Assembly: GCA_050183355.1 (NCBI GenBank)
Contig: JBFXBH010000007.1
Span: forward strand, 1 to 46,634
From: Vicinamibacterales bacterium
GTDB lineage: Bacteria > Acidobacteriota > Vicinamibacteria > Vicinamibacterales > UBA2999
Reading direction: 5' to 3'
DNA: 46,634 nt
Made by a program: the position numbers and the translations under genes. The notes beneath the pieces are model-generated. The model worked only from the letters and a program-made list of their open reading frames with translations, was not told where the DNA came from and ran no database searches. This document shows, piece by piece, positions 6,414 through 39,995 of this stretch (position 1 is the stretch's first letter; the number at the start of each line of letters is the position of its first letter).

Positions 6414-6421
6414 ACCAGTGG

Positions 6422-6429
6422 ATTATAGT
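6422..6429. promoter_or_regulatory. Overlapping divergent -10 elements (bidirectional promoter)
   Basis: ATTATAGT reads TATAAT on the minus strand (6427-6422) and TATAGT on the plus strand (6424-6429), within a 29-bp gap between divergent start codons. Confidence 0.6.
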
Positions 6430-8038: not shown

Positions 8039-8098
8039 CCGCCCCCTCGACGTACGAGTATAGACGCGGGTGCCGCGCGGCCCTCGCACCCGGGGCGG

Positions 8099-8569: not shown

Positions 8570-8620
8570 GCGCATGTTCCTCCGGCACGCCGTAATGGCA
8601 CAGTGGCAGAATAGGCGCGT

Positions 8621-13411: not shown

Positions 13412-13927
13412 TCAGCCGGCGATGGCTTTGGACGCGCGCTGGACGGCGGCGACAATGCCGGTGTACGTGCCGCAGCGGCACAGGTGCGGCGAGGGAGGGT
13501 TGTTCGTGAAGGCCGTGCGTATCTGTTCGACGGTGGGCTTCGGGGTCTTCTCCAGCAGGTCGACGGCGGCGATCATCATGCCGCTCTGGCAGTAACCGCA
13601 CTGCGGCACCTGCTCGTCGATCCACGCCTGCTGCACGGGATGCAGCGTGTCGGCCGTCAACGGCTTGCCGGTCTTCGCCGCCCACAGTCCGGGCAGGCCC
13701 TCGATGGTGTGGATCTTCTTCCCGCCGATGCGCGAGACGGTCGTCGTGCACGACCGGATCTCCTTGCCGTCGGCGAGCACCGCGCAGGCGCCGCATTGCG
13801 ACATCCCGCAGCCGAGGCGCGTCGCCATCAGGTTCAGGTCGTTGCGCAGGACATAGATGAGCGGGGTATCGGCGGCGGCGTTCACCGTGTGGGTCTTCCC
13901 GTTCACGGTCAGGGTGTAGCTCGGCAT
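13412..13927 (-). CDS. 2x[2Fe-2S] small subunit (IorA/CoxS-like)
   Basis: CGMSQCGAC...RSC and QCGYCQSG...LCRCGTY. Confidence 0.93.
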   Translation of the reverse strand: MPSYTLTVNGKTHTVNAAADTPLIYVLRNDLNLMATRLGCGMSQCGACAVLADGKEIRSCTTTVSRIGGKKIHTIEGLPGLWAAKTGKPLTADTLHPVQQAWIDEQVPQCGYCQSGMMIAAVDLLEKTPKPTVEQIRTAFTNNPPSPHLCRCGTYTGIVAAVQRASKAIAG

Positions 13928-13987: not shown

Positions 13988-14935
13988 TCAGCCGGGCGGC
14001 AGCTCGGCATACAGCACGGCGAACGCGGCGGCCGCGCCGCTCACGTCATAGGCGGCAAACCGCTCTGGCAACTGGAGTTCCGCCGCGGCCTGCTCGGGCG
14101 TGCGGCCCGCCGCCTTTGCGCGCCGGCCGGCCTCGACGAGCGCCGCGACGAAGTCCGCGTACTCCTCGACGTCCTTCCACTGCGCCGTCGTCGAGATCGG
14201 CATCACGGACTGCGGCTTGTGCAGGCCCACGCCGCCGGTCTTCGGCGACTCGCGGCCCGGCACCGCCGACCGGGCCGTCGTCACGGCGGCACGTGCCTTC
14301 GCCAGCGTCTGGGTCAGACCGATCAGGCTCCCACCCAGCGCCGGCTCGACCACCGGCACCGCCTTCCGCGGGAAGAGCTCGCTCATGTACGCGAGGCGCT
14401 TCTCCTTGAAGACGATCAGCGCTTCGGCACCCGTGCGGCCGGGTCCGAGAACCATCAGATCCATGACGTCCGGGCCGTCGAGCAGCGTCGCCGTGCCGGT
14501 CACGACGGTCGACGGCGCGAACTTCGCTGCCGCGCCGGCGAACACGCCCAGTTGCGCCGCGCGGTCCGCCACCGCTTTCGGCGCGATGACGGTCGTCACG
14601 TCCGGATAGTCCAGGTTCGCCTTCAGCGCCTCAACGGAACTGCGCAGGTTCACGATGGTCCGCACGGGCTGGTCCGTCACGGTGGAGAGCGCCTCGAGCG
14701 AGGCCTTCCCGAGCCCCGGCAACGGGTCGATCAGCACCACACCGTCGTCCCGCGTCAGCGCGACCGCGTTGGCGCCGCCGCCCGAGAGCACGAACAGGAT
14801 GTCGTACGCGTTCAGATTCCAGAGTGTGACGGCCGGCGCGGCCGTCTGCGCCGCCACCTCCGCCCGCGGCAGACCGGCGGCGGCGGCCAGCAGCGCGACC
14901 ACCGCGCAGGCCGCCCGCGCACGCGGGCGCCTCAC
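13988..14935 (-). CDS. Exported metallo-beta-lactamase-fold protein lacking the metal-binding histidines (probable pseudoenzyme)
   Basis: GTG 14935 overlaps the upstream TGA (GTGA). Signal peptide; LFVLSGGGANAVALTRDDGVVLIDP...VTDQPVRTIVN is MBL/cyclase-like, but the HxHxDH position reads LRSSVE. Confidence 0.72.
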   Translation of the reverse strand: MRRPRARAACAVVALLAAAAGLPRAEVAAQTAAPAVTLWNLNAYDILFVLSGGGANAVALTRDDGVVLIDPLPGLGKASLEALSTVTDQPVRTIVNLRSSVEALKANLDYPDVTTVIAPKAVADRAAQLGVFAGAAAKFAPSTVVTGTATLLDGPDVMDLMVLGPGRTGAEALIVFKEKRLAYMSELFPRKAVPVVEPALGGSLIGLTQTLAKARAAVTTARSAVPGRESPKTGGVGLHKPQSVMPISTTAQWKDVEEYADFVAALVEAGRRAKAAGRTPEQAAAELQLPERFAAYDVSGAAAAFAVLYAELPPG

Positions 14936-16275
14936 TTCCCGTCCTTCGCGAGCGACGCGGCGATGATCTCCTCGTCGTTGCGGGCATAGATGTGCCGGTT
15001 GGCGTAGGCCGGGTGCGACCAGTTCACGTTGACGAGCTGTCGCCGGTTGCCCGGAGGCGAGGTGGGCTTGATGAGCGCCGTCCGGCTGATCTCCTTGTAC
15101 CCGGCCGGGTCCGGCTGCACGATGATGAGCTCCCCGCGATCGTTGTTGATGAAGAGGCGCTCGCCATTGACGACGATGTGCCCGGTGGCCCACCGCGACC
15201 GCTCCTTCGTCACCGCCTGCGTTTCCCACAGCCGCTCGCCGTCGGAGACGCGCATGCACCGGAACTGGCCGTAGCTGCAGATGCCGTAGATGTGGCCGTT
15301 GACGATCACCGGCCCGGAGAGCGTCGAGTGCAGGCCGTCGGTCTGGAGTTCGTTGTTGCTCTTGCCCTTCCACATCATCGACGCGGCCGGCTTCTGCCGG
15401 TCGAGGTTCAGCATCAGGCCGCCGTCGTAGAACGTGCTGAAGAACAGGTGCGGGCCGCTCTTGAACGGCATCGCGGCCGACGCGCTGCCGCCGACGCGCC
15501 ACGGCGTCTCCCAGCGGACCTTGCCGTTCTCGGGGTTGAGGGACGCCACCGCGCCCGGGTACCAGACGATGAGCTGCTTCGCACCGCCCTCCGTGATCAT
15601 CAGCGGCTGCGCCGCACCCAGCTCCGTCTCCATCGAGAGTGACTTCCAGATCACCTGGCCGGTGAACTTGTCGAGCGCGATCACCTTCGCGTCCGGCTGG
15701 CCGCCGACCATGCAGATCAGGTTGTTGCCGTCGACCAGCGGCGCCCCGGTGTAGCCGTAGTTGAACGCCCAGGTCCGCGGGTCCGCGCCCAGGTCCGCGA
15801 CGTAGTCCTTCTTCCAGATCACCTCACCCGTGGCGGCCCTGAAGCAGAACAGCTTGCCGTTGACGCCGAGCACGTAGACGCGGTCCCCGTCCACGGTCGG
15901 CGTGGCGCGTGGACCCACCGGCCACAGAATGCCGCCGTAGTCGGCGGGCCACTCGTGCGTCCAGAGAATCTTTCCAGTCTTCTCGTCGAGGGCCAGCGCC
16001 CGTTCGGTCCCCTTCGGGCCCTTCTGCTCGATGAAGTCGGTCAGGAACACGCGGCCGCCGGCCACGGACGGCCCGCTGAAGCCGCGGTTGACGGGTGTCC
16101 GCCACAGGATCTTCAGGCCCTCGGCGGGAAACGTCTCGAGGATCCCGGTCTCCTTCCAGACGCCGGCGCGGCCCGCGCCGCGGTACTCCGGCCAGTCCTC
16201 GGCCGAGAGCGGTGACGACAGGCTCGCGACCGACAGGACGGCCGACGCGAGCAGCACGAAGACGGGCTTCCGCAC
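14932..16275 (-). CDS. Exported PQQ-like beta-propeller protein
   Basis: SD GGGAGG; signal peptide; EDWPEYRGAGRAG; ALDEKTGKILW blades; GPRATPTV; WSHPAYAN. Confidence 0.87.
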   Translation of the reverse strand: MRKPVFVLLASAVLSVASLSSPLSAEDWPEYRGAGRAGVWKETGILETFPAEGLKILWRTPVNRGFSGPSVAGGRVFLTDFIEQKGPKGTERALALDEKTGKILWTHEWPADYGGILWPVGPRATPTVDGDRVYVLGVNGKLFCFRAATGEVIWKKDYVADLGADPRTWAFNYGYTGAPLVDGNNLICMVGGQPDAKVIALDKFTGQVIWKSLSMETELGAAQPLMITEGGAKQLIVWYPGAVASLNPENGKVRWETPWRVGGSASAAMPFKSGPHLFFSTFYDGGLMLNLDRQKPAASMMWKGKSNNELQTDGLHSTLSGPVIVNGHIYGICSYGQFRCMRVSDGERLWETQAVTKERSRWATGHIVVNGERLFINNDRGELIIVQPDPAGYKEISRTALIKPTSPPGNRRQLVNVNWSHPAYANRHIYARNDEEIIAASLAKDGK

Positions 16276-16367
16276 GCTTCCCCCTCCCGGCCGGCGCGGC
16301 CGGACTCAACCGTGACCGGATGATAGCCGCGGGGCCCCGGCCCCTCCATGGAAATCCGGCCGTCCGC

Positions 16368-17702
16368 TCACGCCCGGCGCCCGCTCGCGACAGCGGCCCC
16401 GGACCGGTCCCGGCTGAGCGTCAGGACCAGCAGGCCCCCGAGGGCCAGTGACACCGCCAGGTAGAGCATCGCCCCCGCGAATCCCCCGCTCTGCTCGCGC
16501 ATGAAGCCCGTGATCGACGGCCCGAAGAACCCGCCGAGGTTGCCGATGGAGTTGATGAGGCCGATCGCCCCGGCCGCGGCCGGGCCGGACAGGAATGTCG
16601 TCGGGTACGACCACCAGACCGCCATCGGCGCGTACGTGCCGATGCCGGCCAGCACCAGGCACCCGTAGAACAGCCACGGCGCGTGCACCAGCCCCCCCAG
16701 CGCCATGCCGATGGCGGCGACGAACAGATGGAGCGCCACGTGCCACCGCTTCTCGTCCCGCGCGGACGAGGAGTGTCCCGTGTACACGGACACCGCCAGC
16801 GACACCACCATCGCCGCCGCGAAGGCCTGTCCGACGCCGACGTTCGACCAGCCCGACACGTCACTGAGCGCGGTCGGCATCCAGTAGTTGAAACCCCAGT
16901 AGCCGGTGATCCAGAGGAAGTAGATCAGGCACAGCTTGAGCACCTCGCGGTCGCCGAGCGCCTCCCAGACGGTGTACTTGCGGACGGCGGCCTTCCCGGC
17001 CACCTCGCGCTCGAACTGTTCCGTCAGGAAGCGCTGCTCGGCCGGCGTCAGCCACCGCGCCTCGCTCGGGCGGTCCGCCAGCCAGCGCAGCACGACGAAC
17101 CCGAACAGCACGGCCGGCGCGGCCTCGATCGCAAACAGCGCCTGCCAGCCCCTGAGCCCGAACGGCGACAGGCCGACCAGCCAGCCGGCGAGCGGCGCGC
17201 CGATGATGACCGAGACCTGGAGCGAGGTCAGCAGCACGGCGATGGCACGGGCGCGTTCCCGGGGCGGAAAGAACCGCGGGATGCAGGTCGCGTAGATGAC
17301 CGGATACAGGCTCGCCTCCGCCACGCCCAGCAGGAATCGGAGCAGGTAGAACTGCCACGCCGTCTCCATGACGACCATCAGGGCCGAGACCAGGCCCCAC
17401 GAGATCATGATCCGGGCGATCCAGATGCGCGGGCTGTAACGCTCGGCGATCAGCGCGCCGGGAATCTCGAAGAAGAAATACCCGGCGAAGAAGATCCCGG
17501 CGCCGAGGCCGAAGACCTGGGCGCTGAAGCCCAGGTCCGTATTCATCGTCAGCGCGGCGTAGCCGATGTTGACGCGGTCGATGTAGGCGATGACGGAGAC
17601 GATGAACAGCGGCAGAACGAGATTGCGGTAGGCCTTCCGCCTGGCGCTCGCCTCGACCGCATCGACCGTCCCCTCCGCCGGGCTGCTCGCGGTGGCGGGC
17701 AC
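16368..17702 (-). CDS. MFS transporter, anion:cation symporter (tartrate/phthalate/nicotinate permease-like) family
   Basis: YIDRVNIGYAALTM, GLGAGIFFAGYFFFEIP, WIARIMISWG, RFLLGVAEA, GLRGWQALFAIE, GLINSIGNLGGFFGP; about 12 hydrophobic segments. Confidence 0.92.
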   Translation of the reverse strand: MPATASSPAEGTVDAVEASARRKAYRNLVLPLFIVSVIAYIDRVNIGYAALTMNTDLGFSAQVFGLGAGIFFAGYFFFEIPGALIAERYSPRIWIARIMISWGLVSALMVVMETAWQFYLLRFLLGVAEASLYPVIYATCIPRFFPPRERARAIAVLLTSLQVSVIIGAPLAGWLVGLSPFGLRGWQALFAIEAAPAVLFGFVVLRWLADRPSEARWLTPAEQRFLTEQFEREVAGKAAVRKYTVWEALGDREVLKLCLIYFLWITGYWGFNYWMPTALSDVSGWSNVGVGQAFAAAMVVSLAVSVYTGHSSSARDEKRWHVALHLFVAAIGMALGGLVHAPWLFYGCLVLAGIGTYAPMAVWWSYPTTFLSGPAAAGAIGLINSIGNLGGFFGPSITGFMREQSGGFAGAMLYLAVSLALGGLLVLTLSRDRSGAAVASGRRA

Positions 17703-17703
17703 C

Positions 17704-19098
17704 CTATTCGGCCTTGATGCGGATATTGCGCCACTCGGTCGGCGAGCCCTCGACCTGCATGCCGAAGAACCCCGCCGGGTAGTCGTGTTCGGTGATCGTC
17801 GAGCTCAGCGCGCCGTTGATGTAGGTCTTCACCTGGCCGTCCTTCGACACGATCTCGATGTCGTTCCAGTCGAACGGCTTCACGGCCTTCGTCTTGGCCG
17901 CGTGGTCGTAGGTGAACTTCCCCTTGCCGCCGCCGAGGAAGAAGATGTCGGCCATGTCGCGGACCCGGCCCTCGATCTCGATGCTCTTGCCGAAGCCGCG
18001 CATGTTCTCCTCCTGGATGAACATCAGCCAGCCGCCGCCCCCCATGTAGATGTCTTCATCGCCCACCCAGCCCTCGGGCTTGACGAACTTGTGCTGGAAG
18101 CGCACGGTGAAGTTGAGGAGCTTCTTCGCGGAGTAGTACCAGTAGCCGTGCAGGTCGCACTTGCAGTACATCTTCCCGCCCGGAACCACCTTCAGCGTCT
18201 CGCCCGGCTCGGTACGCCCGCAGTCGCCCGGCGCCGGTCCGCAGCGCGTCCCCAGATTGAACTTGATATTCGTGAAGTCCTTCCCGTTGAAGATGTGCTC
18301 GAAGCCGGGTTCGTTGAGCATCATCTGGCCCATCAACTCGACGTCGGGCACGAGTTCCGTCTTGCCGGCCGGGAAGCCGTTCCGGTCGAGGATGTGCGCG
18401 ATGATGTCGGCCCGCGTGTTGTTGGTGATTGACTCGTTCCCGAAGGCCGGCATGCTCTGCAGCTTCGTGTAGAGGTGATACACGGTCGGGTAGAGCATCT
18501 TGCCGTAGTAGACGCGCCCGAGGAACGGCGCAGCGAAGGAGCTCGGCAGCGGGGCCTCGTCCACCTGCTTCTGCGTCAGCTTGGCGTCATTCGTGTTGTG
18601 GCACAGGCCGCAGTTGCGATTGAACGCCTGGCGCCCGCGTTCAGCCTGATCCTCGGTAAAGAACGCCTCGCCCCGCTTCGCCGTGCCCGTGAGTGCGAGA
18701 TCGCCCGCGAACTCCTTCGCGCCGGCAGGTACCTTGCTGTACTGCAGCATGTAGGCGACGACATCCGCGTTCTGCTGCCGCGACAGCGTATTCGGCGCGT
18801 GGTAGGGCATCCGCGCCTGGACGTAGCCGAAGAGTTCCCGGACCGGGCGGCTCTGCCACTTTGCCACGAAGGCCGGCCCGCCGGCCGCGGGTGCGAGGTT
18901 GCCGCCGGCGAGATCCTTCCCGTGGCAGAACACGCACTGCTGCTGATAAACCATCGCGCCGCGGGCCGCCTGCGCATCGGTGTAGATTCCGTTCCAGGCG
19001 GGCGCTGGCTGCTGGGCCGATACCGTGGTGAGCGCCAGAGCGCCCGCTGCAGCCAGCAGGCCCGCTGCCAGGACCATTCGCAACGACATCGTTCTCAT
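17704..19098 (-). CDS. Exported diheme cytochrome c-DUF1080 (3-keto-disaccharide hydrolase-like) fusion
   Basis: ATG 19098 after SD GGAGGAG; CVFCH and CGLCH modules; C-terminal IFNGKDF...NFTVRF...DWNDIEI...YING...GFFGMQVEG...WRNIRIK. Confidence 0.83.
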   Translation of the reverse strand: MRTMSLRMVLAAGLLAAAGALALTTVSAQQPAPAWNGIYTDAQAARGAMVYQQQCVFCHGKDLAGGNLAPAAGGPAFVAKWQSRPVRELFGYVQARMPYHAPNTLSRQQNADVVAYMLQYSKVPAGAKEFAGDLALTGTAKRGEAFFTEDQAERGRQAFNRNCGLCHNTNDAKLTQKQVDEAPLPSSFAAPFLGRVYYGKMLYPTVYHLYTKLQSMPAFGNESITNNTRADIIAHILDRNGFPAGKTELVPDVELMGQMMLNEPGFEHIFNGKDFTNIKFNLGTRCGPAPGDCGRTEPGETLKVVPGGKMYCKCDLHGYWYYSAKKLLNFTVRFQHKFVKPEGWVGDEDIYMGGGGWLMFIQEENMRGFGKSIEIEGRVRDMADIFFLGGGKGKFTYDHAAKTKAVKPFDWNDIEIVSKDGQVKTYINGALSSTITEHDYPAGFFGMQVEGSPTEWRNIRIKAE

Positions 19099-19140
19099 TC
19101 CGTCTCCTCCCGCCTCAGCGTCACAGATCACTCCCGGTGG

Positions 19141-19159
19141 GCCGCACGTCGCGTGCGGC
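19141..19159. other. Small intergenic hairpin
   Basis: GCCGCACG-TCG-CGTGCGGC within a 104-nt gap inside the cluster. Confidence 0.35.
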
Positions 19160-19202
19160 ACGCCCGCAGAACGGCTGTCCGCAGGACGTCAGTCTGACCG
19201 CC

Positions 19203-20345
19203 TCAGGGCTGGTCGTGGTCGCGGATGCGGATGTTCCGCCAGCGCGCCGCGAAGCCCTGCATCTGCAGGCCGATGTAGCCCGGCTGCGTGTACTCGTGCT
19301 GGGTCACGGTTGTGACCAGCGTGTCGTTGACGAAGCCCCGGATGTTGCCGTCGGTCGACACAATCTCGATGGTGTTCCACTCGCCGAGCGGGCGCACCAC
19401 GCGCCTCAGGGCGTCGTTGTCCCACGTATTCGCGCGCATCTTCGTGCCGCCGAGCGCCACCGGCTTCAGCAGGTCCCGCTGTTCACCGGCCAGCGTCAGC
19501 GACTTCGGCCAGACGAACAGATTCTCGTCGAACAGGAACAGGTGATAGCCCGTGTTCGCGTAGTAGTAGACGTCGTCCGCGTCCCAGTCCGCGGGCTTCT
19601 CCGACAGGTAGTCGAGCCGCAGCGTGAAGTTGCGGTACTTCCCGGCGGTGTACATGAACCCGTGCTCCTTGCCGGAGCCGCGGATGACGCCGTTCCGGAT
19701 CGTGAACGCCGCGCCCGGCGTCGTCCGGCCGCAGCTCTCGGGGGGCAGCCCGCAACTGAGGCCCACGAGGAACTTCCAGCCCGCGAACGTGCGGCCGTTG
19801 AAGAGGCGCACGAAGCCGGGTTCGTCGAGCGGCATGTTCTTCATGGCCGCCAGGTCGAAGAGCAGCGGTGCCCGGCCGGCGGGGAATCCGTTCTGCTGGA
19901 GCAGATACGCCAGGATGTCGGTGCGCGTCTGCGGCGTGATGCTCGTCGTCACGGCCGGCATGGACTCCAGTTCCCGGTAGAGGAAATAGACCGACGTGAA
20001 GATCCGGCGTCCGGTGTTCTTCTTGTCCGCGATGTAGCGCCCGCCGAGGTTGCTCGTCAGGCGCTGCCGGGCGATCAGGAACCCCCGCGTCTCGAGTTTG
20101 GCCTTTTCGGGGTCCGGCTCGGCGAAGTGGCACGCGCCGCAGTGCTTCTCAAAGAGCGCCTCGCCACGCTCGGCCTGCGCCACCGTGTAGTAGGCCTCCG
20201 GCTCGCCGTTCTCGGGCGCAGCGGCCACGGACGCACCTGGCTGCGCGGCGGCGGGCGGTGCGGCCTGCGCGGACGCAAACAGGAGACCGGCCACGACGAA
20301 GGCGGCGGTCAGGCCGATGACGCGCATTCGCGGGTTCGACGGCAT
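19203..20345 (-). CDS. Exported cytochrome c-DUF1080 fusion
   Basis: TGATG overlap with the upstream gene; signal peptide; YYTVAQAERG...CGACH...SMPA; LFNGRTFAGW...YRNFTLRLDY...GEWNTIEI...GYIGLQMQG...WRNIRIR. Confidence 0.85.
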   Translation of the reverse strand: MPSNPRMRVIGLTAAFVVAGLLFASAQAAPPAAAQPGASVAAAPENGEPEAYYTVAQAERGEALFEKHCGACHFAEPDPEKAKLETRGFLIARQRLTSNLGGRYIADKKNTGRRIFTSVYFLYRELESMPAVTTSITPQTRTDILAYLLQQNGFPAGRAPLLFDLAAMKNMPLDEPGFVRLFNGRTFAGWKFLVGLSCGLPPESCGRTTPGAAFTIRNGVIRGSGKEHGFMYTAGKYRNFTLRLDYLSEKPADWDADDVYYYANTGYHLFLFDENLFVWPKSLTLAGEQRDLLKPVALGGTKMRANTWDNDALRRVVRPLGEWNTIEIVSTDGNIRGFVNDTLVTTVTQHEYTQPGYIGLQMQGFAARWRNIRIRDHDQP

Positions 20346-21352
20346 CAGGGCACCTCAATCAACTCGATCGCCTCCAGGCTTGGCCCTTCGACCATGGCCG
20401 CGCGGCCGGACCCGAAGCGGTACGGCGCCTTCAGGATGCGCACGCCATTCTGCCGCAGCCGGGCCAGCCAGTTCGAGAGCCCGCTGACCTGCAGGCCCAC
20501 GTGGTCCATGACGTGGCCGCGGGAGCCGACGAGCGGCTGGCCGCCCTGCCGTTGATACCAGTTCAGCTCGACATCCCCGAACGCCACGCCGCCTGCGGGC
20601 TGGCGCATCGTGCCCTGCGGCACCAGCGAAAGCCAGGACGGCTCGCCGGTCGCGACGTCGCAATCCGCCTCGGACGTCTTCCGCCCTTCCGCGCGGCGCG
20701 CCGACTGGCTGATCGGCACGCCGAAATGGCGTTGGTACCAGAGCTCGGCGCAGAAGACCTGCTCCTGGAACATGTGGACGTGGTTGAAGCGTTCGGCGGG
20801 GTGGTCGCCTGCGTACTCGATCCACTCCCCGTCCGGGCCGGTGAGGTAGCCGTATCCCCCGGCGGTGGCCTTCGCGCCCCTCTCACGTGCCGCCGCGGCC
20901 GCCGCGCGCGTGAGCGTGCCAGGGAGCCACTCGTTGCTGAAGGTCACGGTGCGGCCGTCGTCCGTGTGGAGCGGCGTCAGAGGCGCGCCGGACGTCCGGT
21001 ACCGCTCCCACGAGCCCTGAGCGCTGGGCACGTGCCAGCCGAAGTGCCAGTACGCACTCTGCCCCGCCGGCGGACGGCCGGTCCGCTTCGAGAGGAGCAC
21101 GAGCACGTGCCCGGTGCGGAAGCCGGTGAAGCCGGCCACCGTGGCCGGCTCGACCGTCGTGAAGTGGCGCTGATAGAAACGTACCGCCGCGGCCGGGTCG
21201 GCGCTGTTCAGGTGCAGGTGGTGGAAGGCCGGTGTCTCGCTGTTCTGGGCCCGTGCAGCCGGGGGCGTGACCGCGCGCGCGCCCGGAAGGAGGACAAGCA
21301 CCGCCGCCGTCAGAAGCCCTGCCCGCACGGCACCCACAGTACTCGACCTCAT
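20345..21352 (-). CDS. Exported multi-module VOC (glyoxalase/extradiol dioxygenase fold) protein
   Basis: Signal peptide; FHHLHLN, WHFGWH, GPDGEWIEY, FNHVHM, MDHVGLQV, EGPSLEAIELIE. ATG 21352 is the preferred start. Confidence 0.8.
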   Translation of the reverse strand: MRSSTVGAVRAGLLTAAVLVLLPGARAVTPPAARAQNSETPAFHHLHLNSADPAAAVRFYQRHFTTVEPATVAGFTGFRTGHVLVLLSKRTGRPPAGQSAYWHFGWHVPSAQGSWERYRTSGAPLTPLHTDDGRTVTFSNEWLPGTLTRAAAAAARERGAKATAGGYGYLTGPDGEWIEYAGDHPAERFNHVHMFQEQVFCAELWYQRHFGVPISQSARRAEGRKTSEADCDVATGEPSWLSLVPQGTMRQPAGGVAFGDVELNWYQRQGGQPLVGSRGHVMDHVGLQVSGLSNWLARLRQNGVRILKAPYRFGSGRAAMVEGPSLEAIELIEVP

Positions 21353-21397
21353 CGGCTCCGCCTCACGTCCCTGCACCACGTCGCGGAACCGCACCCG

Positions 21398-23572
21398 CTA
21401 CGGTCGCGCGCTTCCGGCAGCCGGCAGTCGGAACACCCACAGCGTCGTGCCGGATGCCGGCGCCCCGATCTCCGGCGTGAGGGCACCGCCGTTCACGTCG
21501 TACGTCCGGCCCCCGCCCGCTGTCACCGCGATGTACTGTACGCCGTTGACGCTGTAGCTGATCGGATAGGAACTCGGCGGCGCGTTCAGGCGCACCTGCC
21601 ACAGCACCTTGCCGGTCCGGTCGTCGAGCGCACGGAACCAGCGGTCGCGGGAGCCCTCGAACACGAGCCCCCCGGCGGTGGCCAGCACCGCGCTGCTGTG
21701 CGGCGCCCGCTCGCGGTTCGTCCACAGCGTCTTGCGCGTCGCGAGGTCCACGGCCTGCACGCGCCCGACCATGCCGTCACCGCCCTCCTTCGGCGTCGCG
21801 AAGACGGCGATGTCGATCGCCGCGCCCGGCGTAGGTGAGTACATGAAGGGCATGCAGGTCTCGTTGCTCGGCACGAAGAGCACGCCGGTCTTCGGATTGA
21901 ACGACGTCGCCGGCCAGTTGCGGCCGCCGCCGGAGGCCGACGGGCAGATGGTCCTGATCTCGTTGGCCTTCGGCTCCAGCTCCGCCGAGATCCGCTTGGC
22001 GCCGGTCTTCGGATCGATGGCCACGACGAGGTTCTGGATGCCGGAGTCGTAGGAGAACAGGTACTGTCCGGTCGCCGCGTCCAGCGTGTCGAAGAGCGCC
22101 ATCTTGCCGGCCGTCGTGACGGTCCTGCGCGGTTTCCCGCCCACGGTGAGCGTGGCGAGCGTCCGCTCGAAGACCCAGTCCAGGTCCCACACCTCCCGGC
22201 CCATGTGCTGGTAGTGCCACACGAGCTCGCCGGTCTCGGGGCGCAGCGCGAGCGTGCTGTTGGTGAACAGCCCGTCGTTGTAGCCGGGCTTGCCGGGCGC
22301 ACCTTCGAGCAGCACCTCGGCCTTGTACGTCTGGCCGACCCCGCTGTAGACCAGGTTCAGCTCCGGGTCGTAGCTGGGCGCGGTCCAGATCGCGCCGCCG
22401 GTGCGCTTCTCGAGTGGCGCGCCGTTCCAGGTGTCGCCGCCCGGTTCGCCGGGCCGGGCGAGGGTGTTGAAGCGCCACACCTCCCGGCCGGTGGCGGCAT
22501 CGAGCGCCAGCAGGAAGCAGCCCCCCGCGTAGCCGACGTTGCAGTTCGACATGCCCTGAAAGAGCTTGCCCTTTGCCACCAGGGGACCGGCCGTAAAGGA
22601 GATGTTGTCTTTGGCGTCCGCAAAGGCGCGGTCCCACACCATCGTGCCGTCGCGCATGTTGATGGCCGTCACGTTCCGGCTGCCCGCGAGGTAGACCATC
22701 TCGCCGTAGATCCCGAGGTTGCGGACAAACGGCGTGCTGAAGCCCGGGCTCGCGCCGGGCGCGCCGGCCCCCGGGCGCGCGTACTTCCAGATCGGGTCGC
22801 CGGTCGCCGCGTCCAGCGCCTCCAGGGTTCCCGCGCTGGCGGCGAAGAGGACGCCGTCGTGCATCAGCGGCGTGATCTCGTTCACGCCGGGCGCCAGGCT
22901 CCAGCTCCACGCCACGCCGAGCCGGCCGACATTCTCCCTGTTGATCTGGTCCAGGTCGCTGAAGCCCTGGGCGTCGTAGGTGCGGCGCCAGTGGAGCCAC
23001 TCGCCCCTGGGCGGGTTGCGCAGCATCTCGTCCGTGACCGGCCTCAGCGCGCGCATCCGCTCGGCGCGCGCCTTCAGCGCCGCCTGCGCGGTGGCGTCCT
23101 CGATGAACAACTGCGGGAGCGGAATCCCCTGGCGACGCTCGGCGGGCCAGTGGTCAGCCAGGCTCATCGCCGCCAGGGCCGAGGGCTGCGCGGCCGGTCC
23201 CGCGGGCTTCACGCCGTTGGCCTGGACCAGATACGCCATCACGTCGACGTAGTCCTGATCGCTGAGCGAGCCCGGTGCCTGCGGCGGCATCCGCTCACGC
23301 ATGTATCGAAACAGGCCGTCGCCCGGCTGCGCCCGCCAGCGTCCTCTGAACGCCGGCGTGATGAGGGCGGGCCCCCCGGGCCCGCCGGTGAGGTCGGCGC
23401 CGTGGCAGCCCTGGCAGGTGGACCGATACAACTGCACGCCACGGCCGGCCTGCGCCTCGGTGAAGGTGAACGGGCCGGGCCTCCCCTGCCCGGACGTCGC
23501 CACGACCGCCGCAACGAGGCCGATGGCCGCCAGGGCCCCCGCGCCGATCTTCCGCCGCCTCGTCGCCCCCAT
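21398..23572 (-). CDS. PQQ-dependent dehydrogenase (alcohol-dehydrogenase-like) with an N-terminal cytochrome c domain
   Basis: CQGCH...RMPPQAPGSL; WLHWRRTYDAQGFSDLDQINRENV; YDPELNLVYSGVG; WHYQH...WDLDWVFE; CPSASGGGRNW; LATAGGLVF; GVQYIAV. Confidence 0.88.
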   Translation of the reverse strand: MGATRRRKIGAGALAAIGLVAAVVATSGQGRPGPFTFTEAQAGRGVQLYRSTCQGCHGADLTGGPGGPALITPAFRGRWRAQPGDGLFRYMRERMPPQAPGSLSDQDYVDVMAYLVQANGVKPAGPAAQPSALAAMSLADHWPAERRQGIPLPQLFIEDATAQAALKARAERMRALRPVTDEMLRNPPRGEWLHWRRTYDAQGFSDLDQINRENVGRLGVAWSWSLAPGVNEITPLMHDGVLFAASAGTLEALDAATGDPIWKYARPGAGAPGASPGFSTPFVRNLGIYGEMVYLAGSRNVTAINMRDGTMVWDRAFADAKDNISFTAGPLVAKGKLFQGMSNCNVGYAGGCFLLALDAATGREVWRFNTLARPGEPGGDTWNGAPLEKRTGGAIWTAPSYDPELNLVYSGVGQTYKAEVLLEGAPGKPGYNDGLFTNSTLALRPETGELVWHYQHMGREVWDLDWVFERTLATLTVGGKPRRTVTTAGKMALFDTLDAATGQYLFSYDSGIQNLVVAIDPKTGAKRISAELEPKANEIRTICPSASGGGRNWPATSFNPKTGVLFVPSNETCMPFMYSPTPGAAIDIAVFATPKEGGDGMVGRVQAVDLATRKTLWTNRERAPHSSAVLATAGGLVFEGSRDRWFRALDDRTGKVLWQVRLNAPPSSYPISYSVNGVQYIAVTAGGGRTYDVNGGALTPEIGAPASGTTLWVFRLPAAGSARP

Positions 23573-23584
23573 GAACCTCTGCTC

Positions 23585-24712
23585 CTAGTCCGGCAGCGCC
23601 TTGATGCGGATGTTCCTGAAGCGCATCGCGACTCCCTCAAGCTGGAAGATGACCCAGCCGGGGTTGGTGAACTTGTTCGATCCCCGCCCGATGGGCGCGC
23701 CGTTGATGTAGGTGTTGATCACGCCCTGATCGTTGACGACGCGCACCGAGTTCCACTCGCCCACCGGCCGCTGCACGCGCTTCCGCGTCACGTCGTCGAG
23801 CAGCGGATCGGGCACGCTGAGCACGGCCATCAGGTTCAGGTTGTGCCCCTGCACCTCAATCCGCGACTGGGTCGGCGGGTAGACGAAGTGCTCGGTCACC
23901 GGAAAGAGGACGCCGCCGTTGCCGTCGAAGAACGTGTCGCCAGGGTCGGCATCGGCCGGTCGCTCGAACAGCATGTCGAATCGGAGGTCGAAGTGCCTGT
24001 ACTGCTTCTTCGTGTGCCAGTAGCCTTCCGGCTGGCCGGCATAGACCAGCTCTCCCCGGGCCGCGTCGACCGTCACGACGTTGCCGGGGTCCGTCGTGCC
24101 GCAGCCCAGCGGCGCCGGCTTGCACATGAAGCCCAGCACCACGCCGAGGCCGGACAGGTCGCGGCCGTCGAACACGACGTCGAACCCCTGCTCGTTGAGG
24201 GGCATCCGCTTCATCGCCGCGATGTCGAGCGTCAGCGGCACGGCTCCGGGTGGAAAGCCGTTGGCCTTGAGAATGAACGCGATGATGTCCAGCTTGACCG
24301 TGGGGCTCACCGCGTGTGAGTTGCCCGCCGGCATCGTGTCCCGGATGCGGCGGAACAGGTGGTACAGCGACGGGTACTTGCGCGCGAAGCGCCCCCCGAG
24401 CGACAGCAGCGTGTGCTCGGTCCGGTAGAACCCTGCTTCGGGCGGCAGCATCTCCCGCGTGAGCAGCGGCGGCGCCGTGTGGCAGACGCCGCAGTTGCGC
24501 AGGAACGCCGCCCGTCCGCGCGTGGCCTGTTCCTCGGTGTAGTACTGCGAGACGGGCTCACCGACCGGCGGCGCCACCGGATCGCCCAGCCCGCCGACCT
24601 TCGCGGGCTCCAGGCCCTGGCCGGAGGCGGGCACGGACAGACACATCGCGAACGCCGTCAGCAGCAGTGCGCGGGCCACCACCCGTCTCGGCGGCGCGGC
24701 AGCTCCCGTCAT
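23585..24712 (-). CDS. Exported cytochrome c-DUF1080 fusion
   Basis: ATG 24712 overlaps the upstream TGA (ATGA); YYTEEQATRG...CGVCH...TMPAG; VFDGRDLSG...YRHFDLRFD...GEWNSVRV...YING...FQLEG...FRNIRIK. Confidence 0.85.
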   Translation of the reverse strand: MTGAAAPPRRVVARALLLTAFAMCLSVPASGQGLEPAKVGGLGDPVAPPVGEPVSQYYTEEQATRGRAAFLRNCGVCHTAPPLLTREMLPPEAGFYRTEHTLLSLGGRFARKYPSLYHLFRRIRDTMPAGNSHAVSPTVKLDIIAFILKANGFPPGAVPLTLDIAAMKRMPLNEQGFDVVFDGRDLSGLGVVLGFMCKPAPLGCGTTDPGNVVTVDAARGELVYAGQPEGYWHTKKQYRHFDLRFDMLFERPADADPGDTFFDGNGGVLFPVTEHFVYPPTQSRIEVQGHNLNLMAVLSVPDPLLDDVTRKRVQRPVGEWNSVRVVNDQGVINTYINGAPIGRGSNKFTNPGWVIFQLEGVAMRFRNIRIKALPD

Positions 24713-25137
24713 GGCTTGCGCTCGATGATGGTGATGGCCTTCAGCACCTCGACGCGCCCCGGCAGCTCGGAGGCACCCGCCGGCATCCCGCCGACCTGCA
24801 ACATGTAGGCGAGCACGTCGGCGTTCTGCTGGTCGCTCAGGTGCCCGCTCAGGTTGAGTGGCATCTGGGTGCGCATGATATCGAAGACCGTCGCGAGAGG
24901 CCGCCGGTTCCACTTTCCGGCGAACGCCGGCCCCGCGAGCGCCGGTGCGAGCACCGTGCCCGCCAGGTTCAAGCCGTGGCACATCGAGCAGTTCTCACGG
25001 TAGAACGGCTCACCCCGCGCGGCCTGGGCGTCCGTGTAGACGCCGTCCCACTGCGACTTCGGTGATTGAGCCGCCAGGCCCAGCCCGCACACGCCTGTGA
25101 GCGCGAGCGCGGCCAGAACCTGGCGGAGGAAGGACAC
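24709..25137 (-). CDS. Small exported class I cytochrome c
   Basis: Probable GTG 25137; signal peptide; WDGVYTDAQAARG...CSMCHG...QMP...LSDQQNADVLAYML. Confidence 0.85.
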   Translation of the reverse strand: MSFLRQVLAALALTGVCGLGLAAQSPKSQWDGVYTDAQAARGEPFYRENCSMCHGLNLAGTVLAPALAGPAFAGKWNRRPLATVFDIMRTQMPLNLSGHLSDQQNADVLAYMLQVGGMPAGASELPGRVEVLKAITIIERKP

Positions 25138-25147
25138 GGCGCGGAGC

Positions 25148-28120
25148 CTAGAAGTCGAGCTGCACGCCGAGCTTGAGGAGGCGCGCCGGCAGAATCCCGA
25201 GCGGCCGCAGCCAGGCCGCACCGCCCCCGGCGATCGTGCCGTAGTTGTTGTTCCAGGTCACCACCGTGTTCCGGTTGGCCAGATTGTACAGGTCCAGCAT
25301 CGCGCGAATGCGCGTGGTGCGCACCGTGAACACGCGCGTGACCCGCAGGTCGATCTGGTTGATCCGGTCTCCGTACACCGAGTTGGGCTGGATCAGATTG
25401 ATACTCGCCGTCGCCGTCGCGCCGGCGGAGAGGTTCCGTCCAAGCGACGGGGCGATGACCGCGTTGTTGACGACCGCCGTCGCCGAGACCGCGGCGCCGG
25501 GCACGCTCTGGAAGGTGCCGGACACGATCACGTCCCAGGGCAGGTTGTACGACCCGAGGAGCTTCACCTGCTTCTGATACGGCTGCACCTGCCGGCAGTA
25601 CGGGCCGCCGAGGGGCCCGCCCACGCCGGTCGTGCCGGCCTCTGGCACCTTGGCGAAGATCTCGCAGTTGTCCGTGACGGACCGGCCGAAGCTGAAGCCG
25701 CCCTGCAGCGTCGCCTTGTTCTTCAACCGGGTGTTCACGGCCATGTCCACGCCCTGCCACGTCTCGACCTGCTTGCCGTAGTCATTCGAGAGTGTGCCCA
25801 GGTTCTGCAGTCGACCGAGGCTGGACGGGTTCAGATCGCGCAGGCCGCAGATCTGCTGCCCGCCGCCGTTCGGCAGCCGGGAATTGCTGGGCGCGGTGAT
25901 GCAGAACGAGTCGTAGTTGTCGGCCGAAACCAGCGTGTTGTCGGTCACGGTGAAGTTCCCGTAGTGCCGGCGGAAGAAGGCCATGCTCGCCGACATTCCG
26001 GGCCGCAGCTCCTGCTGCACGCCGGTGGAGAACTCCCAGTTGTAAGTGCGGACGCCGAACCCCTCCGTCCACGCCGGGTCGTAGCTCAGCGTCCGGACGA
26101 GCCGGCCGAAGTTCTGATTGGGACTCGGGCCGAGTTCGCCGTTGGCGGCCGGATTCAGCGGGTCGCCCTGCGGCACGAAGTCGCCGTTCAGATCGTTGAA
26201 CGTGCGCGTCAGCGTGCCGGCCGACGACGTCGTCGGATCCACGACGCGGGTCAGGTCCATCGTCTCCTGCAGCACGTACCGCGACATGCTGACCTTGAGC
26301 GCCGTCCTGCCGTTCCCGAACACGTCCCAGGATGCGCCCAGACGCGGAGAGAGGTCGTTCCACTTGAAGACGTCCGCGCCCGGAAAGGACCGCGCCGGCA
26401 GCAGATTCGTGGCGGCCAGGTCGTAGTCCGGATACCGCGTCCCCAGCCGATCCCACCGGATGCCGAGATTCAGCGTCACCCGGTTCACGTTCCACTGGTC
26501 CTGCGCGAAGGCACTGGACTTGTAGGCGTAGTTGGTCAGCCTGAACGGCGTCGGCAGGAACGTGACCGAGTTGGGACGGCCGTTCACCAGCGTCAGCTCG
26601 TAGTCCGCCGGCGCTTCGTACAGCGGACTCAGGAACGCGTTCTGCTGCTGGAAGCCGAACTTGAACCCGTGGGAGCCCGTCACGTAGGACACGGCGACGC
26701 GGTAGACGTCGTTGCGTTGATCCTCGTCGCGATACACCTGCGGACTCACCGGGTTGCCGTAGGTGACGGCGCGGATGCGCTGGCCCGTCGTGCTCTCCAG
26801 CGCCGTCGGCCCGATGGCGCCGGGTCGCGGCACGATGGTGTGCAGCACGTCGGTGAGTGACACGCCGCCCTCCACCAGCAGCCGGTTGGTGAGCGGAGCC
26901 GAATACGTCACCTGGATGATGTTGCTGTGGAAGTTCTGGATGTAGTTGGCCTCGTCGGCAAGCTGACCGGCCAGCGTCCGGAACTCCAGCTTGTCGTTCC
27001 AGTCGAACATCACGGCCAGCTTGTTCTTCGGCGTCATCTGCCACGTCACGCGCCCGACGCCGTCCTTCGTGATCTGATCCTGGTAGGGGCGCACCGAGAG
27101 GTCCGGCACGTACGTGAAGCCCGTCGGGTTGAGGTTCGGCGCGCGGGTGGACTGGTTCGCGTAGTTCGCGATCCGCCAGTCGCGGTAGGCGGTGAAGAAC
27201 CAGAGCTTGTCCTTCTTCAGCGGGCCGCCGAACGAGGGATTGATGTCGCGGATCTCCTTCGTCGGCAGGGCCGCCGTCAGCCCGCGCTGCCTGAGCTCGT
27301 CGGTATAGTTGTTCGACTGCGTCGCCTCGTTGGCGATGTTGGCGAAGAAGCCGCCCGAGAACCGGTTGCCGCCCTGCTTCGGCAGCATGTTGGCAACCAC
27401 GCCGCCCGTCTCCCACTCGGCCGAGTGGCCGCTCACGGAGAGAATCGTCTGCTCAATCGTCTGGTCGCCGAGCGTTGTGGCTCCAATGCTCCCCGCGAAT
27501 GCCTGGACCATCGCCACGGACATGCCGTCCAGCAGCGTCTGCTGGTCGTTGCGACGCCCGCCATGAATCGTCAGGCCCTGGAAGCCCTCACCCGAGCTCC
27601 CGCCGACGTCCTGCCCCTGAGTCGTCGCCCCCAGCACGTTCATGCCCGGAATCAGCACGGCCAGATTGGCAATCGATTTGGCCGTCGGGATGGCATCGAT
27701 GATGTCACGCGTGAGCACGCGCTGCTCGCGGACATTCTGCACGTCAACGACAGGCGTCTGGCCGGAGACGACGATCGTCTCCTCCATCGCGCCCACTTTC
27801 ATCTCCGCACTGATGTTCGCGGTGAAGCCGGCGGCCACGTCAATACCTTCGCGTTTGACCGTCGAGAACCCGGTGAGCGTGAAGGTGACGCTGTAGACGC
27901 CGGGTCTGAGGTCCGTGATCCTGTAGTTGCCCGCGCCGTCGGAGACGGCCGTCCGGACCTTCTCGATGAGCGCCGGACTGGCCACTTCGACCGTCACACC
28001 CGGCAGCACGCCGCCAGTCGCGTCCTTCACTCCACCTGCGATCGAACCCGATGTCTGTGCGCCCGCCAGCGCCGGCAGGCAGCACAGCAAGACAGCCAGC
28101 AACCCCTTGTGGACGTTCAT
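25148..28120 (-). CDS. TonB-dependent receptor 2 (CarboxypepD_reg type)
   Basis: ATG 28120 after SD GAGGTG; GVLPGVTVEVASPALIEKVR; FAQDQWNVNRVTLNLGIRWD; SPRLGASWDVFGNGRTALK; ends VQLDF. Confidence 0.92.
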   Translation of the reverse strand: MNVHKGLLAVLLCCLPALAGAQTSGSIAGGVKDATGGVLPGVTVEVASPALIEKVRTAVSDGAGNYRITDLRPGVYSVTFTLTGFSTVKREGIDVAAGFTANISAEMKVGAMEETIVVSGQTPVVDVQNVREQRVLTRDIIDAIPTAKSIANLAVLIPGMNVLGATTQGQDVGGSSGEGFQGLTIHGGRRNDQQTLLDGMSVAMVQAFAGSIGATTLGDQTIEQTILSVSGHSAEWETGGVVANMLPKQGGNRFSGGFFANIANEATQSNNYTDELRQRGLTAALPTKEIRDINPSFGGPLKKDKLWFFTAYRDWRIANYANQSTRAPNLNPTGFTYVPDLSVRPYQDQITKDGVGRVTWQMTPKNKLAVMFDWNDKLEFRTLAGQLADEANYIQNFHSNIIQVTYSAPLTNRLLVEGGVSLTDVLHTIVPRPGAIGPTALESTTGQRIRAVTYGNPVSPQVYRDEDQRNDVYRVAVSYVTGSHGFKFGFQQQNAFLSPLYEAPADYELTLVNGRPNSVTFLPTPFRLTNYAYKSSAFAQDQWNVNRVTLNLGIRWDRLGTRYPDYDLAATNLLPARSFPGADVFKWNDLSPRLGASWDVFGNGRTALKVSMSRYVLQETMDLTRVVDPTTSSAGTLTRTFNDLNGDFVPQGDPLNPAANGELGPSPNQNFGRLVRTLSYDPAWTEGFGVRTYNWEFSTGVQQELRPGMSASMAFFRRHYGNFTVTDNTLVSADNYDSFCITAPSNSRLPNGGGQQICGLRDLNPSSLGRLQNLGTLSNDYGKQVETWQGVDMAVNTRLKNKATLQGGFSFGRSVTDNCEIFAKVPEAGTTGVGGPLGGPYCRQVQPYQKQVKLLGSYNLPWDVIVSGTFQSVPGAAVSATAVVNNAVIAPSLGRNLSAGATATASINLIQPNSVYGDRINQIDLRVTRVFTVRTTRIRAMLDLYNLANRNTVVTWNNNYGTIAGGGAAWLRPLGILPARLLKLGVQLDF

Positions 28121-28218: not shown

Positions 28219-28453
28219 TCACCTGAACGGGGTACGCGACCGGCTACCTCATCCGCAATTTCGCACGTGGCATGCAACTTGTCGTGCTTGGCACTACCCT
28301 GCCCCGTCGGAACCATGCCGCCACCGCCACCGGGCCGCCCCTCGGCCGCCGTTTGCTGCGTACGCGCGTTTCTCGCTCACGTCGGGTCCGCGGCAGCGTC
28401 CTCGCGGGGAGTTACACTCTCGCTCGTACCAGGCAAGGGTTCCGGAGGTCGCT

Positions 28454-32578: not shown

Positions 32579-32607
32579 TGAGCCCTCCTTCGTCAGAAAC
32601 ACATCCA

Positions 32608-34590: not shown

Positions 34591-34664
34591 ACACCCTCCC
34601 TGAGTCGCCGGCGCAGGCCCGCAGAGGGCCGCCAGCAACCGTGCGTACCCGAGCATCAGTTGAT

Positions 34665-36023: not shown

Positions 36024-36034
36024 GTGCCGTGCTC

Positions 36035-38434: not shown

Positions 38435-38445
38435 GTCGAATCTCC

Positions 38446-39966: not shown

Positions 39967-39995
39967 ATTCTAGTGTCCGGGGCCGGGGCTCTCAA
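39967..39995 (-). promoter_or_regulatory. Sigma70-type promoter of the ankyrin-DUF1592-DUF1552-PQQ DH-TBDR3 operon
   Basis: TTGAGA-N17-TAGAAT on the minus strand. Confidence 0.65.

Follow-up and report, generated by a model that had tools for sequence, protein, structure and literature searches.

We analyzed a 46,634-nucleotide stretch of DNA (the window) from a Vicinamibacterales bacterium, which is a soil-type Acidobacterium with a run of genes for secreted proteins. In this run, c-type cytochrome domains are fused to a DUF1080 domain in three different proteins, and the fusions are encoded near a pyrroloquinoline quinone (PQQ) dehydrogenase and a vicinal oxygen chelate (VOC) protein. The window has a GC content of about 0.68 and is from contig C7 of a 3.3-Mb genome (308 contigs) that is 92% complete. 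We called genes by combining a listing of open reading frames (ORFs), the GC content at third codon positions, and scans with Pfam and NCBIfam models (Pfam was run on 29 ORFs from the window). Signal peptides were assessed by eye from the N-termini.

A run of 13 co-directional genes

The first-pass annotation described ten co-directional genes at 13988-28120, several of them closely coupled. All ten are on the minus strand, and Pfam confirms each of the domain calls (for the last gene, via its relatives, as discussed below). The most upstream gene encodes a TonB-dependent receptor (TBDR2, 25148..28120) that matches PF25183 (OMP_b-brl_4, 102 bits), PF13620 (CarboxypepD_reg, 56.7 bits), and, weakly, Plug; the CarboxypepD_reg domain is N-terminal. 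It is followed by a free mono-heme cytochrome c (24709..~25137; PF13442/PF00034) with one CxxCH motif, whose start codon is uncertain and whose heme module we call type-1. Then come the first cytochrome c-DUF1080 fusion (DUF1080_A, 23585..24712), with CxxCH at residue 74, and a quinohemoprotein (21398..23572) with an N-terminal cytochrome c domain (PF13442, 42 bits) and a PQQ dehydrogenase domain (PF01011, 205 bits). Next are a secreted protein with two VOC modules (20345..21352; PF00903), a second cytochrome c-DUF1080 fusion (DUF1080_B, 19203..20345; PF13442, 27.7 bits), and a di-heme fusion (17704..19098), which has a type-1 heme, a type-2 heme, and then DUF1080 (CxxCH at residues 55 and 163; PF13442, 65.8 bits). 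The last three of the ten encode a transporter of the major facilitator superfamily (MFS; 16368..17702; PF07690, 166 bits), a secreted PQQ_2 (BamB-like) beta-propeller (14932..16275; PF13360, 112.7 bits), and a degenerate protein of the metallo-beta-lactamase (MBL) fold (13988..14935).

The run does not stop at 13988. Three more genes continue it, with gaps of 60, 8, and 9 nucleotides: a 2Fe-2S subunit (13412..13927; PF01799 and PF00111), a molybdopterin subunit with a twin-arginine translocation (TAT) signal (11097..~13397; PF02738 and PF20256; there is an RR motif in the N-terminus), and a di-heme cytochrome c (9915..11087; PF13442). The full co-directional run thus has 13 genes, from 28120 to 9915, and the gaps between them range from -4 to 104 nucleotides. 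The coupling is tightest at four junctions: the free cytochrome c and DUF1080_A (-4), the VOC protein and DUF1080_B (-1), the propeller and the MBL-like protein (-4), and the di-heme fusion and the MFS transporter (+1). A scan for terminator-like sites found none in the minus-strand intergenic gaps of the run (4 sites in the scan as a whole, versus 8.1 expected), and it found no promoter-like sites; these are weak indications.

The arrangement is also present in Logan contigs. A contig from sequencing run X1 (10,141 bases, 0 differences) bridges 17405-27545, and contigs from run X2 bridge 21486-27545 and, again with no differences, 27524-30746. As X1 and X2 are possibly the source samples, these contigs amount to a second assembler's view of what may be identical reads, and not independent data.

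DUF1080 domains and shared heme modules

The C-terminal domains of the three fusions had been assigned to DUF1080, and they do belong there: the scores for PF06439 are 50.9 bits for DUF1080_A, 84.8 bits for DUF1080_B, and 51.7 bits for the di-heme fusion (the gathering cut-off is 26.8). These domains also have profile homology (E ~1e-7) to the solved chains 3OSD, 8TDA, and 8V31. Within the DUF1080 part, the family of cytochrome c-DUF1080 fusions has an invariant C-x6-C loop of its own.

The heme modules link the fusions to the quinohemoprotein. The free cytochrome c shares 52% identity with the di-heme fusion's first heme domain (E = 3e-37) and 41% with the one in the cytochrome c-PQQ enzyme (E = 9e-25). 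In other words, the type-1 module occurs in three settings: on its own, fused to a PQQ enzyme, and fused ahead of a DUF1080 protein. The type-2 heme domain, in which a long insert separates CxxCH from the Met region, is found only in fusions with DUF1080. If these homologies are read as Rosetta-stone fusions, they imply a chain from the PQQ enzyme to the type-1 heme to the type-2 heme to DUF1080. It suggests, from homology, that the DUF1080 fusions may receive electrons from quinoproteins, and no other internal argument for this is as strong.

The fusions recur near PQQ and VOC genes

Cytochrome c-DUF1080 fusions have a narrow distribution: they are present in all four of the other genomes from the genus and in 8 of 36 genomes from the family. 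None of 24 genomes from the order's other families has one, and neither does any of 400 other genomes that were sampled evenly from the phylum (E <= 1e-40). A large protein collection contains about 106 clusters of full-length fusions, all with automated names, for example "mono/diheme cytochrome c family protein" and "family 16 glycoside hydrolase." Our search of the literature, which did not extend to subscription journals or supplements and which saw some sources only in part, turned up no description of the fusion.

Five genomes from the genus (2.5-3.7 Mb) have 7-12 cytochrome c-DUF1080 genes each. Among the 44 PF06439 genes in these genomes, 14 have a PF01011 (PQQ dehydrogenase) gene within 6 kb, versus 2.8 expected, and 18 have a PF00903 (VOC) gene within 6 kb, versus 3.3 expected. 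Nine of the 44 have both. Because many of the contigs are short, these counts are lower bounds. The usual partners of DUF1080 had been reported as absent from the cluster, and this extends well beyond it: Gfo/Idh/MocA dehydrogenases (PF01408), GMC flavoproteins (PF05199), and xylose-isomerase-like TIM barrels (PF01261) are not found in the window or within 10 kb of any of the 44 genes.

Orthologous loci are not independent of each other, so we also counted orthogroups. In genomes G000, G001, and G003, 24 genes form 11 groups (a partial copy on contig C10 of G000 was omitted). A PQQ gene is nearby in 7 of the 11 groups, a VOC gene in 5, and a gene for a DUF5916 protein in 3.

Related loci show similar combinations. 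For example, a Vicinamibacterales metagenome-assembled genome (MAG), L039, encodes a 2Fe-2S subunit, a molybdopterin subunit, DUF1080_B (68% identity), a PQQ enzyme, a cytochrome c, DUF1080_A (66%), another PQQ enzyme, a cytochrome c-PQQ dehydrogenase (38%), and a lactonase. Another Vicinamibacterales MAG, L040, has a PQQ enzyme, DUF1080_B (64%), and a PQQ_2 propeller. In contig C16 of G003 (locus L117), the order is TonB-dependent receptor, ThuA, di-heme DUF1080 fusion (81%), PQQ dehydrogenase, MFS transporter, TonB-dependent receptor, ThuA, PQQ dehydrogenase.

The cytochrome c-PQQ enzyme and the supply of PQQ

The cytochrome c-PQQ enzyme scores over the Pfam cut-off for PF01011 and is predicted to be an 8-bladed PQQ dehydrogenase. 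Its closest relative of known structure is sorbose dehydrogenase (4MH1, E = 1.5e-97 over residues 177-717), followed by PQQ-dependent alcohol and sugar dehydrogenases (among them the alcohol dehydrogenases 4CVB and 7WMD, and the type II alcohol dehydrogenase 1KV9 at E = 2e-63). It is homologous to such enzymes across the full length of the propeller, and it carries a heme c domain in the same chain. It does not have the layout of a type II quinohemoprotein alcohol dehydrogenase: its heme domain (residues 41-117) precedes the propeller instead of following it at the C-terminus. The score for TIGR03075 (the methanol/ethanol family) is 328.9 bits, below the curated cut-off of 480. At about residues 462-466, W-D-L-D follows the putative catalytic Asp, where sorbose dehydrogenase has W-D-Q-E. 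(Lanthanide-dependent PQQ enzymes have an acidic residue two places past the catalytic Asp.)

The family of the cytochrome c-PQQ enzyme is very large (at least 2555 proteins at E <= 1e-30) and is not tied to DUF1080. Orthologs with 83-92% identity are found on other metagenome contigs, and there are relatives with 50-57% identity in sphingomonads. For the neighboring PQQ enzymes, ThuA, and the lactonase, NCBIfam models gave scores below the cut-off or no match.

The five genomes from the genus have 11-25 PF01011 genes each after merging matches (12-31 raw match rows). None of the five has a match to the model for pqqC (TIGR02111), which was also silent in all 14 control genomes and so is uninformative by itself. 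Vicinamibacteria with the PQQ importer PqqU have been reported to lack PQQ synthesis (PMC12124388), and this bacterium probably scavenges PQQ. The set of quinoproteins is unusually large for a likely scavenger.

VOC proteins, ThuA, and the propeller/MBL-like pair

The two-module VOC protein scores 42.4 bits against PF00903 (the cut-off is 20.6), so it belongs to the VOC superfamily, whose fold is that of glyoxalases and dioxygenases. Across 22 relatives, H44, H45, H47, H103, H191, H193, H284, E179, E330, and a pair of Cys residues are invariant, and from these residues the VOC proteins are predicted to be metalloenzymes. Searches of the VOC and MBL-like sequences against solved structures gave chance matches to antibodies or no matches. 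VOC genes are numerous: there are 13-26 merged matches per genome (16-32 raw rows) in the five genomes from the genus.

Paralogous loci of the genus encode ThuA (PF06283, ~110 bits), which does not occur in the window. Six of the seven ThuA genes, from five genomes, adjoin a PF01011 gene or lie within about 2 kb of one (contigs include G003:C16, G001:C10, G002:C6, and G004:C101). The ThuA family is tied to the formation of 3-keto-disaccharides, and work by Ampomah and colleagues in 2013 reportedly linked ThuAB to 3-keto derivatives. In rhizobia and Agrobacterium, the partner of ThuA is the NAD-dependent ThuB, whereas the ThuA homologs of this genus pair with PQQ dehydrogenases.

The MBL-like protein has no Pfam match itself. 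We aligned 30 of its 558 relatives (E <= 0.001), and 21 of these match PF00753 (Lactamase_B). In the window protein, LRSSVEAL replaces the HxHxDH motif, and the GHT, GD, and GH motifs are lost. Given the matches in its relatives and the loss of its motifs, the first-pass description of a "His-less MBL" holds; membership in the fold is predicted from homology. Three of the 30 aligned relatives (P0246, P0267, and P0293) are fusions with a PQQ_2 propeller, of 754-783 amino acids, so it is very likely that the propeller and the MBL-like protein form a pair, which points to a two-part unit whose MBL half has lost its metal site.

Gene order in related genomes

Orthologs of many of these genes are found in other genomes from the genus. 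DUF1080_B has orthologs with 75-87% identity in four of them, and the orthologs of DUF1080_A in four genomes (68-81%) are at another locus. The VOC gene has 69-72% orthologs beside DUF1080_B in G001 and G003, and the propeller has 88-95% orthologs in G001-G003. In G002, the order in the window from DUF1080_B to the molybdopterin subunit is kept, with the MFS transporter in place at 90% identity; in G001 and G003, a different MFS transporter is at that position. (The public record for G002 is titled "uncultured Bifidobacteriaceae bacterium," and since the genes there match those of the window at 83-95% identity, the title looks mislabelled.) The 2Fe-2S and molybdopterin subunits are syntenic in G001, G003, G002, and L039; the di-heme cytochrome c (9915-11087) was not found at the molybdopterin locus in G001 or G003.

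Contigs G001:C2 and G003:C11 share a gene order: DUF5916, aldo/keto reductase, a second propeller (propeller_b), SnoaL, molybdopterin subunit, 2Fe-2S subunit, MBL-like protein, propeller, then SUI1, the different MFS transporter, and a small VOC, followed by the di-heme DUF1080 fusion, DUF1080_B, VOC, an ankyrin protein, TBDR1, a second PQQ dehydrogenase (PQQ DH2), a sensor kinase, and a regulator. The ankyrin gene thus lies between the VOC gene and TBDR1/PQQ DH2 in these genomes. In contig C49 of G003, TBDR2 (89%), the free cytochrome c (72%), and DUF1080_A (76%) are together, after a different PQQ enzyme, while G001 has the cytochrome c and DUF1080_A elsewhere, with a small VOC gene before them and a different TonB receptor after.

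Other genes of the island

The MFS transporter had been called an anion:cation symporter (ACS) type. Its best NCBIfam match is indeed TIGR00893 (D-galactonate transporter, 283.9 bits), ahead of HpaX (218.7 bits), but the curated cut-off is 395, which makes "ACS-type" the nearest model rather than a curated assignment. The 2Fe-2S subunit, the TAT-signalled molybdopterin subunit, and the adjacent cytochrome c have the makeup of a molybdenum hydroxylase of the IorAB/aldehyde oxidoreductase type with a cytochrome c subunit.

Just upstream of the run and divergent from it is a gene for a secreted SMP-30/gluconolactonase-like protein (28427..29464, plus strand; PF08450, 94.6 bits). Homologs of this lactonase are encoded near cytochrome c-DUF1080 genes in L039, L040, and L124. 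Together with the molybdenum/2Fe-2S/cytochrome c enzyme and the galactonate-type MFS transporter, it makes part of the island read as ordinary periplasmic oxidation to acids.

Beyond the lactonase, on the minus strand, are TBDR1 (29567..32611; PF25183) and PQQ DH2 (32611..34872), which is of the glucose/quinate type (PF01011, 566 bits; TIGR03074, 355 bits, below the cut-off). Upstream of PQQ DH2 is a pair of genes (34668..38533, minus strand) for a DUF1552 (HXXSHH) protein and a multi-domain PSD/PSCyt heme protein (DUF1592/1588/1587/1595/1585), and an ankyrin protein is encoded near this pair. Such pairs, often with an adjoining ankyrin-repeat gene, recur near cytochrome c-DUF1080 islands (for instance at 26181-30016 of G000:C10). 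The plus strand encodes, at 39967..43595, a sensor kinase whose periplasmic domains are Reg_prop and Y_Y_Y, and a LuxR-type response regulator. These two genes stay beside PQQ DH2 and TBDR1 in G001 and G003, and because this linkage is kept, they are a candidate regulator of the island.

Downstream of the run, also on the minus strand, are a small VOC protein (8099..8575; a weak match to PF00903), whose signal, RRAFLAG, is of the twin-arginine type and whose gene is just upstream of that for an aldo/keto reductase (7037..8089), and a DUF5916 protein of about 770 amino acids (4104..6422). Of 13 further loci, 6 (L113, L115, L119, L120, L122, and L123) have DUF5916 proteins of this size adjoining cytochrome c-DUF1080 genes, and three DUF5916 genes are in tandem in contig C1 of G003.

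Comparison to known systems

The BT2157/AL2-type pathway of Bacteroides and Alistipes, which breaks down glycosides by oxidation, elimination, and hydration, shares the PF06439 family with the island, and the window's DUF1080 domains are homologous to the solved chains and keep Gln273 and the RNIRI strand (see below). Unlike that pathway, the domain in the window sits behind one or two c-type hemes, has the C-x6-C loop, and has replacements at His275 and Tyr190, and in the window's genus neither a Gfo/Idh/MocA dehydrogenase nor a TIM-barrel lyase is encoded nearby.

Caulobacter offers a parallel in its use of cytochromes. There, as has been described (PMC9007349), a putative periplasmic 3'-ketolactose hydrolase (DUF1080; CCNA_01705) works with the cytochrome-linked LacABC, so that a cytochrome-linked periplasmic dehydrogenase is found beside a secreted DUF1080 protein. 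However, LacABC is an FAD-dependent glycoside 3-dehydrogenase with the cytochrome as a subunit, while our bacterium has PQQ enzymes as its dehydrogenases and joins the cytochrome to DUF1080. Also, a GMC flavoprotein is near none of the 44 DUF1080 genes.

In acetic acid bacteria and pseudomonads, periplasmic oxidative fermentation combines a PQQ dehydrogenase, a molybdenum or FAD aldehyde/gluconate dehydrogenase with cytochrome c, and a lactonase. The island resembles this, with a PQQ enzyme, a molybdenum/2Fe-2S/cytochrome c set, a lactonase, and acid uptake in one place. In contrast to oxidative fermentation, the clusters in the window are led by TonB-dependent receptors, and the cytochrome c-DUF1080 fusions, the VOC protein, and the degenerate MBL have no counterpart there.

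What the island might do

We propose that the region serves as a composite island for periplasmic oxidation in a Vicinamibacterales bacterium, which probably scavenges its PQQ, and that electrons pass from PQQ enzymes through a heme relay that includes the DUF1080 fusions. This is the explanation that we favor, and we hold it tentatively, at a little short of an even chance. The TonB-dependent receptors would admit a carbohydrate-type substrate, which the PQQ dehydrogenases would oxidize in the periplasm. Electrons would leave via the type-1 heme module and then the type-2 heme that is fused to the DUF1080 jelly-roll. The divergent DUF1080 subfamily would hold or convert the oxidized (keto) sugar, together with the secreted VOC metalloenzymes; in the paralogous loci, ThuA would take the role of VOC beside DUF1080. 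The lactonase and the molybdenum aldehyde oxidoreductase would complete the oxidation to acids, which the MFS carrier would import. If so, the island would be a lineage-restricted and uncharacterized variant of periplasmic sugar oxidation. The sugar theme is suggested by the homology to sorbose dehydrogenase, the lactonase, the galactonate-type transporter, the DUF5916 neighbors, and the Reg_prop/Y_Y_Y sensor kinase. The domains, their tight spacing, the homology of the heme modules, the recurrence with PQQ and VOC genes, and the absence of the canonical partners are direct observations; that electrons flow in this direction, that the substrate is a carbohydrate, and that DUF1080 or VOC proteins are catalysts at all is what the model would add to them.

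According to a preprint (bioRxiv 10.1101/2024.03.25.586180), characterized DUF1080 enzymes act on 3-keto-glycosides, as 3-keto-glucoside lyases and hydratases, and the conserved active site of BT2157 comprises Glu103, Asn134, Glu164, Gln166, Tyr190, Lys245, Gln273, and His275. An endo-xanthanase/lichenase is also mentioned in PMC9007349. We mapped the numbering of BT2157 via alignments to 3OSD, and an offset of 25 fits all seven of the listed residues that are inside the alignments. The window's domains retain Gln273 and the C-terminal RNIRI strand, and they do not have the full active-site set, as at least 2 of the 8 residues are replaced. We consider the case for a catalytic domain here, as opposed to one that only binds sugar, to be about evenly balanced.

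Several results weigh against the proposed relay and its sugar chemistry. His275 is replaced by Gln in DUF1080_B and by Glu in DUF1080_A and the di-heme fusion, and Asp or Asn takes the place of Tyr190. The alignment is ambiguous at Glu103, Asn134, Glu164, and Gln166, and Lys245 falls outside it. Few polar residues are invariant in the DUF1080 part of the family, and DUF1080 overlaps CBM66, which is a non-catalytic binding module (bioRxiv 10.1101/179903). With two active-site residues of BT2157 replaced, 3-keto-glycoside chemistry is unproven. As for the genomic associations, counts from genomes of the same genus are not independent, so binomial p-values overstate the enrichment. In 4 of the 11 orthogroups, no PQQ or VOC gene lies as close as 6 kb, and two full-length relatives from MAGs that are labelled as other phyla (L046 and L047) have no PQQ or VOC neighbors, and instead lie near genes for a flavin-dependent monooxygenase (FMO)-like protein, a kinase, and a cytochrome P450. 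The cytochrome c-PQQ enzyme has no ortholog in G001-G004 or G036, just paralogs with 37-44% identity. Finally, the gene set that the first-pass annotation described is not conserved together. The block at 21398-29464, from the cytochrome c-PQQ enzyme to the lactonase, is absent from the syntenic locus in G001:C2 and G003:C11, and TBDR2, the free cytochrome c, and DUF1080_A are elsewhere. We therefore rejected the ten genes as one conserved unit: the modules are scattered among different loci in the relatives, and the window is a composite of four or five modules at least, not a single conserved operon.

How specific can the explanation be? The first-pass annotation had proposed a PQQ/heme-driven variant of DUF1080 pathways. 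Spelled out, this would be an undescribed form of periplasmic glycoside cleavage or remodelling, in which a quinoprotein oxidizes C3 in place of the NAD- or FAD-dependent 3-dehydrogenases, VOC or ThuA proteins eliminate or isomerize in place of the TIM-barrel lyases, and a heme-wired DUF1080 hydratase/lyase hydrates or cleaves the product and sends electrons to the respiratory chain, with the acid, as well as PQQ, being imported. We think that this is rather unlikely. It would account for the membership in DUF1080, given what the characterized enzymes do, and for the absence of the canonical dehydrogenases and lyases from 44 of 44 neighborhoods, where PQQ and VOC genes are enriched. The part of the proposal that stands is that PQQ, VOC, and ThuA genes recur instead of the canonical partners in several independent loci; ThuA has PQQ dehydrogenases as partners and, in one case, a DUF1080 fusion. 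VOC enzymes form metal-stabilized enolates, which would fit an E1cB elimination. The replacement of His275 and Tyr190 counts against it, however, as does the mosaic arrangement. The window's PQQ enzyme is nearest to sorbose and other sugar or alcohol dehydrogenases, not to a 3-dehydrogenase, and its huge family exists without DUF1080. The lactonase and the molybdenum enzyme suggest oxidation at C1 or of aldehydes. And within the scope of our literature search, we found neither a PQQ-linked route via 3-keto-glycosides nor a PQQ-dependent glycoside 3-dehydrogenase.

The lactonase and the molybdenum enzyme would be expected if the island performs ordinary direct oxidation: PQQ enzymes would make lactones or aldehydes from aldoses or alcohols, the lactonase and the molybdenum enzyme would give acids, the MFS transporter would import them, DUF1080 would be a CBM66-like binding or docking module on the electron acceptor, and the VOC protein would be unrelated. 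Everything that this requires is in the island (the lactonase, the galactonate-type transporter, the glucose/quinate-type PQQ enzyme, and the molybdenum/2Fe-2S/cytochrome c enzyme), and the overlap with CBM66, the replaced residues, the scarcity of invariant polar residues, and the heme modules in common with the PQQ enzyme all fit. It would leave unexplained why a VOC gene overlaps or abuts DUF1080 (in 5 of 11 orthogroups, and by 1 nucleotide in the window), and also why ThuA is in such loci, and we consider it unlikely. Or the window might be a chance juxtaposition of unrelated secreted modules, or the substrate might not be a carbohydrate at all (it could be a polyol or a polymer alcohol, for example). 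The dispersal of the modules in the relatives and the strain-specific distribution of the cytochrome c-PQQ gene within the genus are consistent with this, and with so many PQQ and VOC genes per genome, some adjacency is expected. Also, PQQ enzymes with an N-terminal heme include the sphingomonad proteins. But adjacency is 5 to 6 times what is expected, and it is seen in separate orthogroups and in other MAGs; stop and start codons overlap within the run; and its minus-strand gaps have no terminator-like site. This explanation seems quite improbable to us.

Implications for the Vicinamibacterales

The recurring combination of cytochrome c-DUF1080 fusions with PQQ dehydrogenases and putative metal enzymes may represent a new kind of extracellular sugar oxidation. 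Fusions of heme to a PQQ enzyme, of heme to DUF1080, and of a PQQ_2 propeller to a degenerate MBL act as Rosetta stones that make the partners directly testable. If the proposed model of the periplasmic oxidation island is true, and quinoproteins pass electrons to heme-tethered DUF1080 proteins that act on keto-sugars, then the recently found non-Koshland, oxidative pathway for glycosides would also operate in the periplasm, in a respiratory setting. Many proteins that are now annotated as cytochromes of the mono/diheme family or as family 16 glycoside hydrolases would also gain a function. The Vicinamibacterales are common Acidobacteria of soil and sediment, and few of them have been cultured and little is known of their physiology. 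The combination of 11-25 PQQ dehydrogenase genes per genome with no match to pqqC (for which the controls were blank as well) would make periplasmic oxidation with a scavenged cofactor a main feeding mode of these bacteria.

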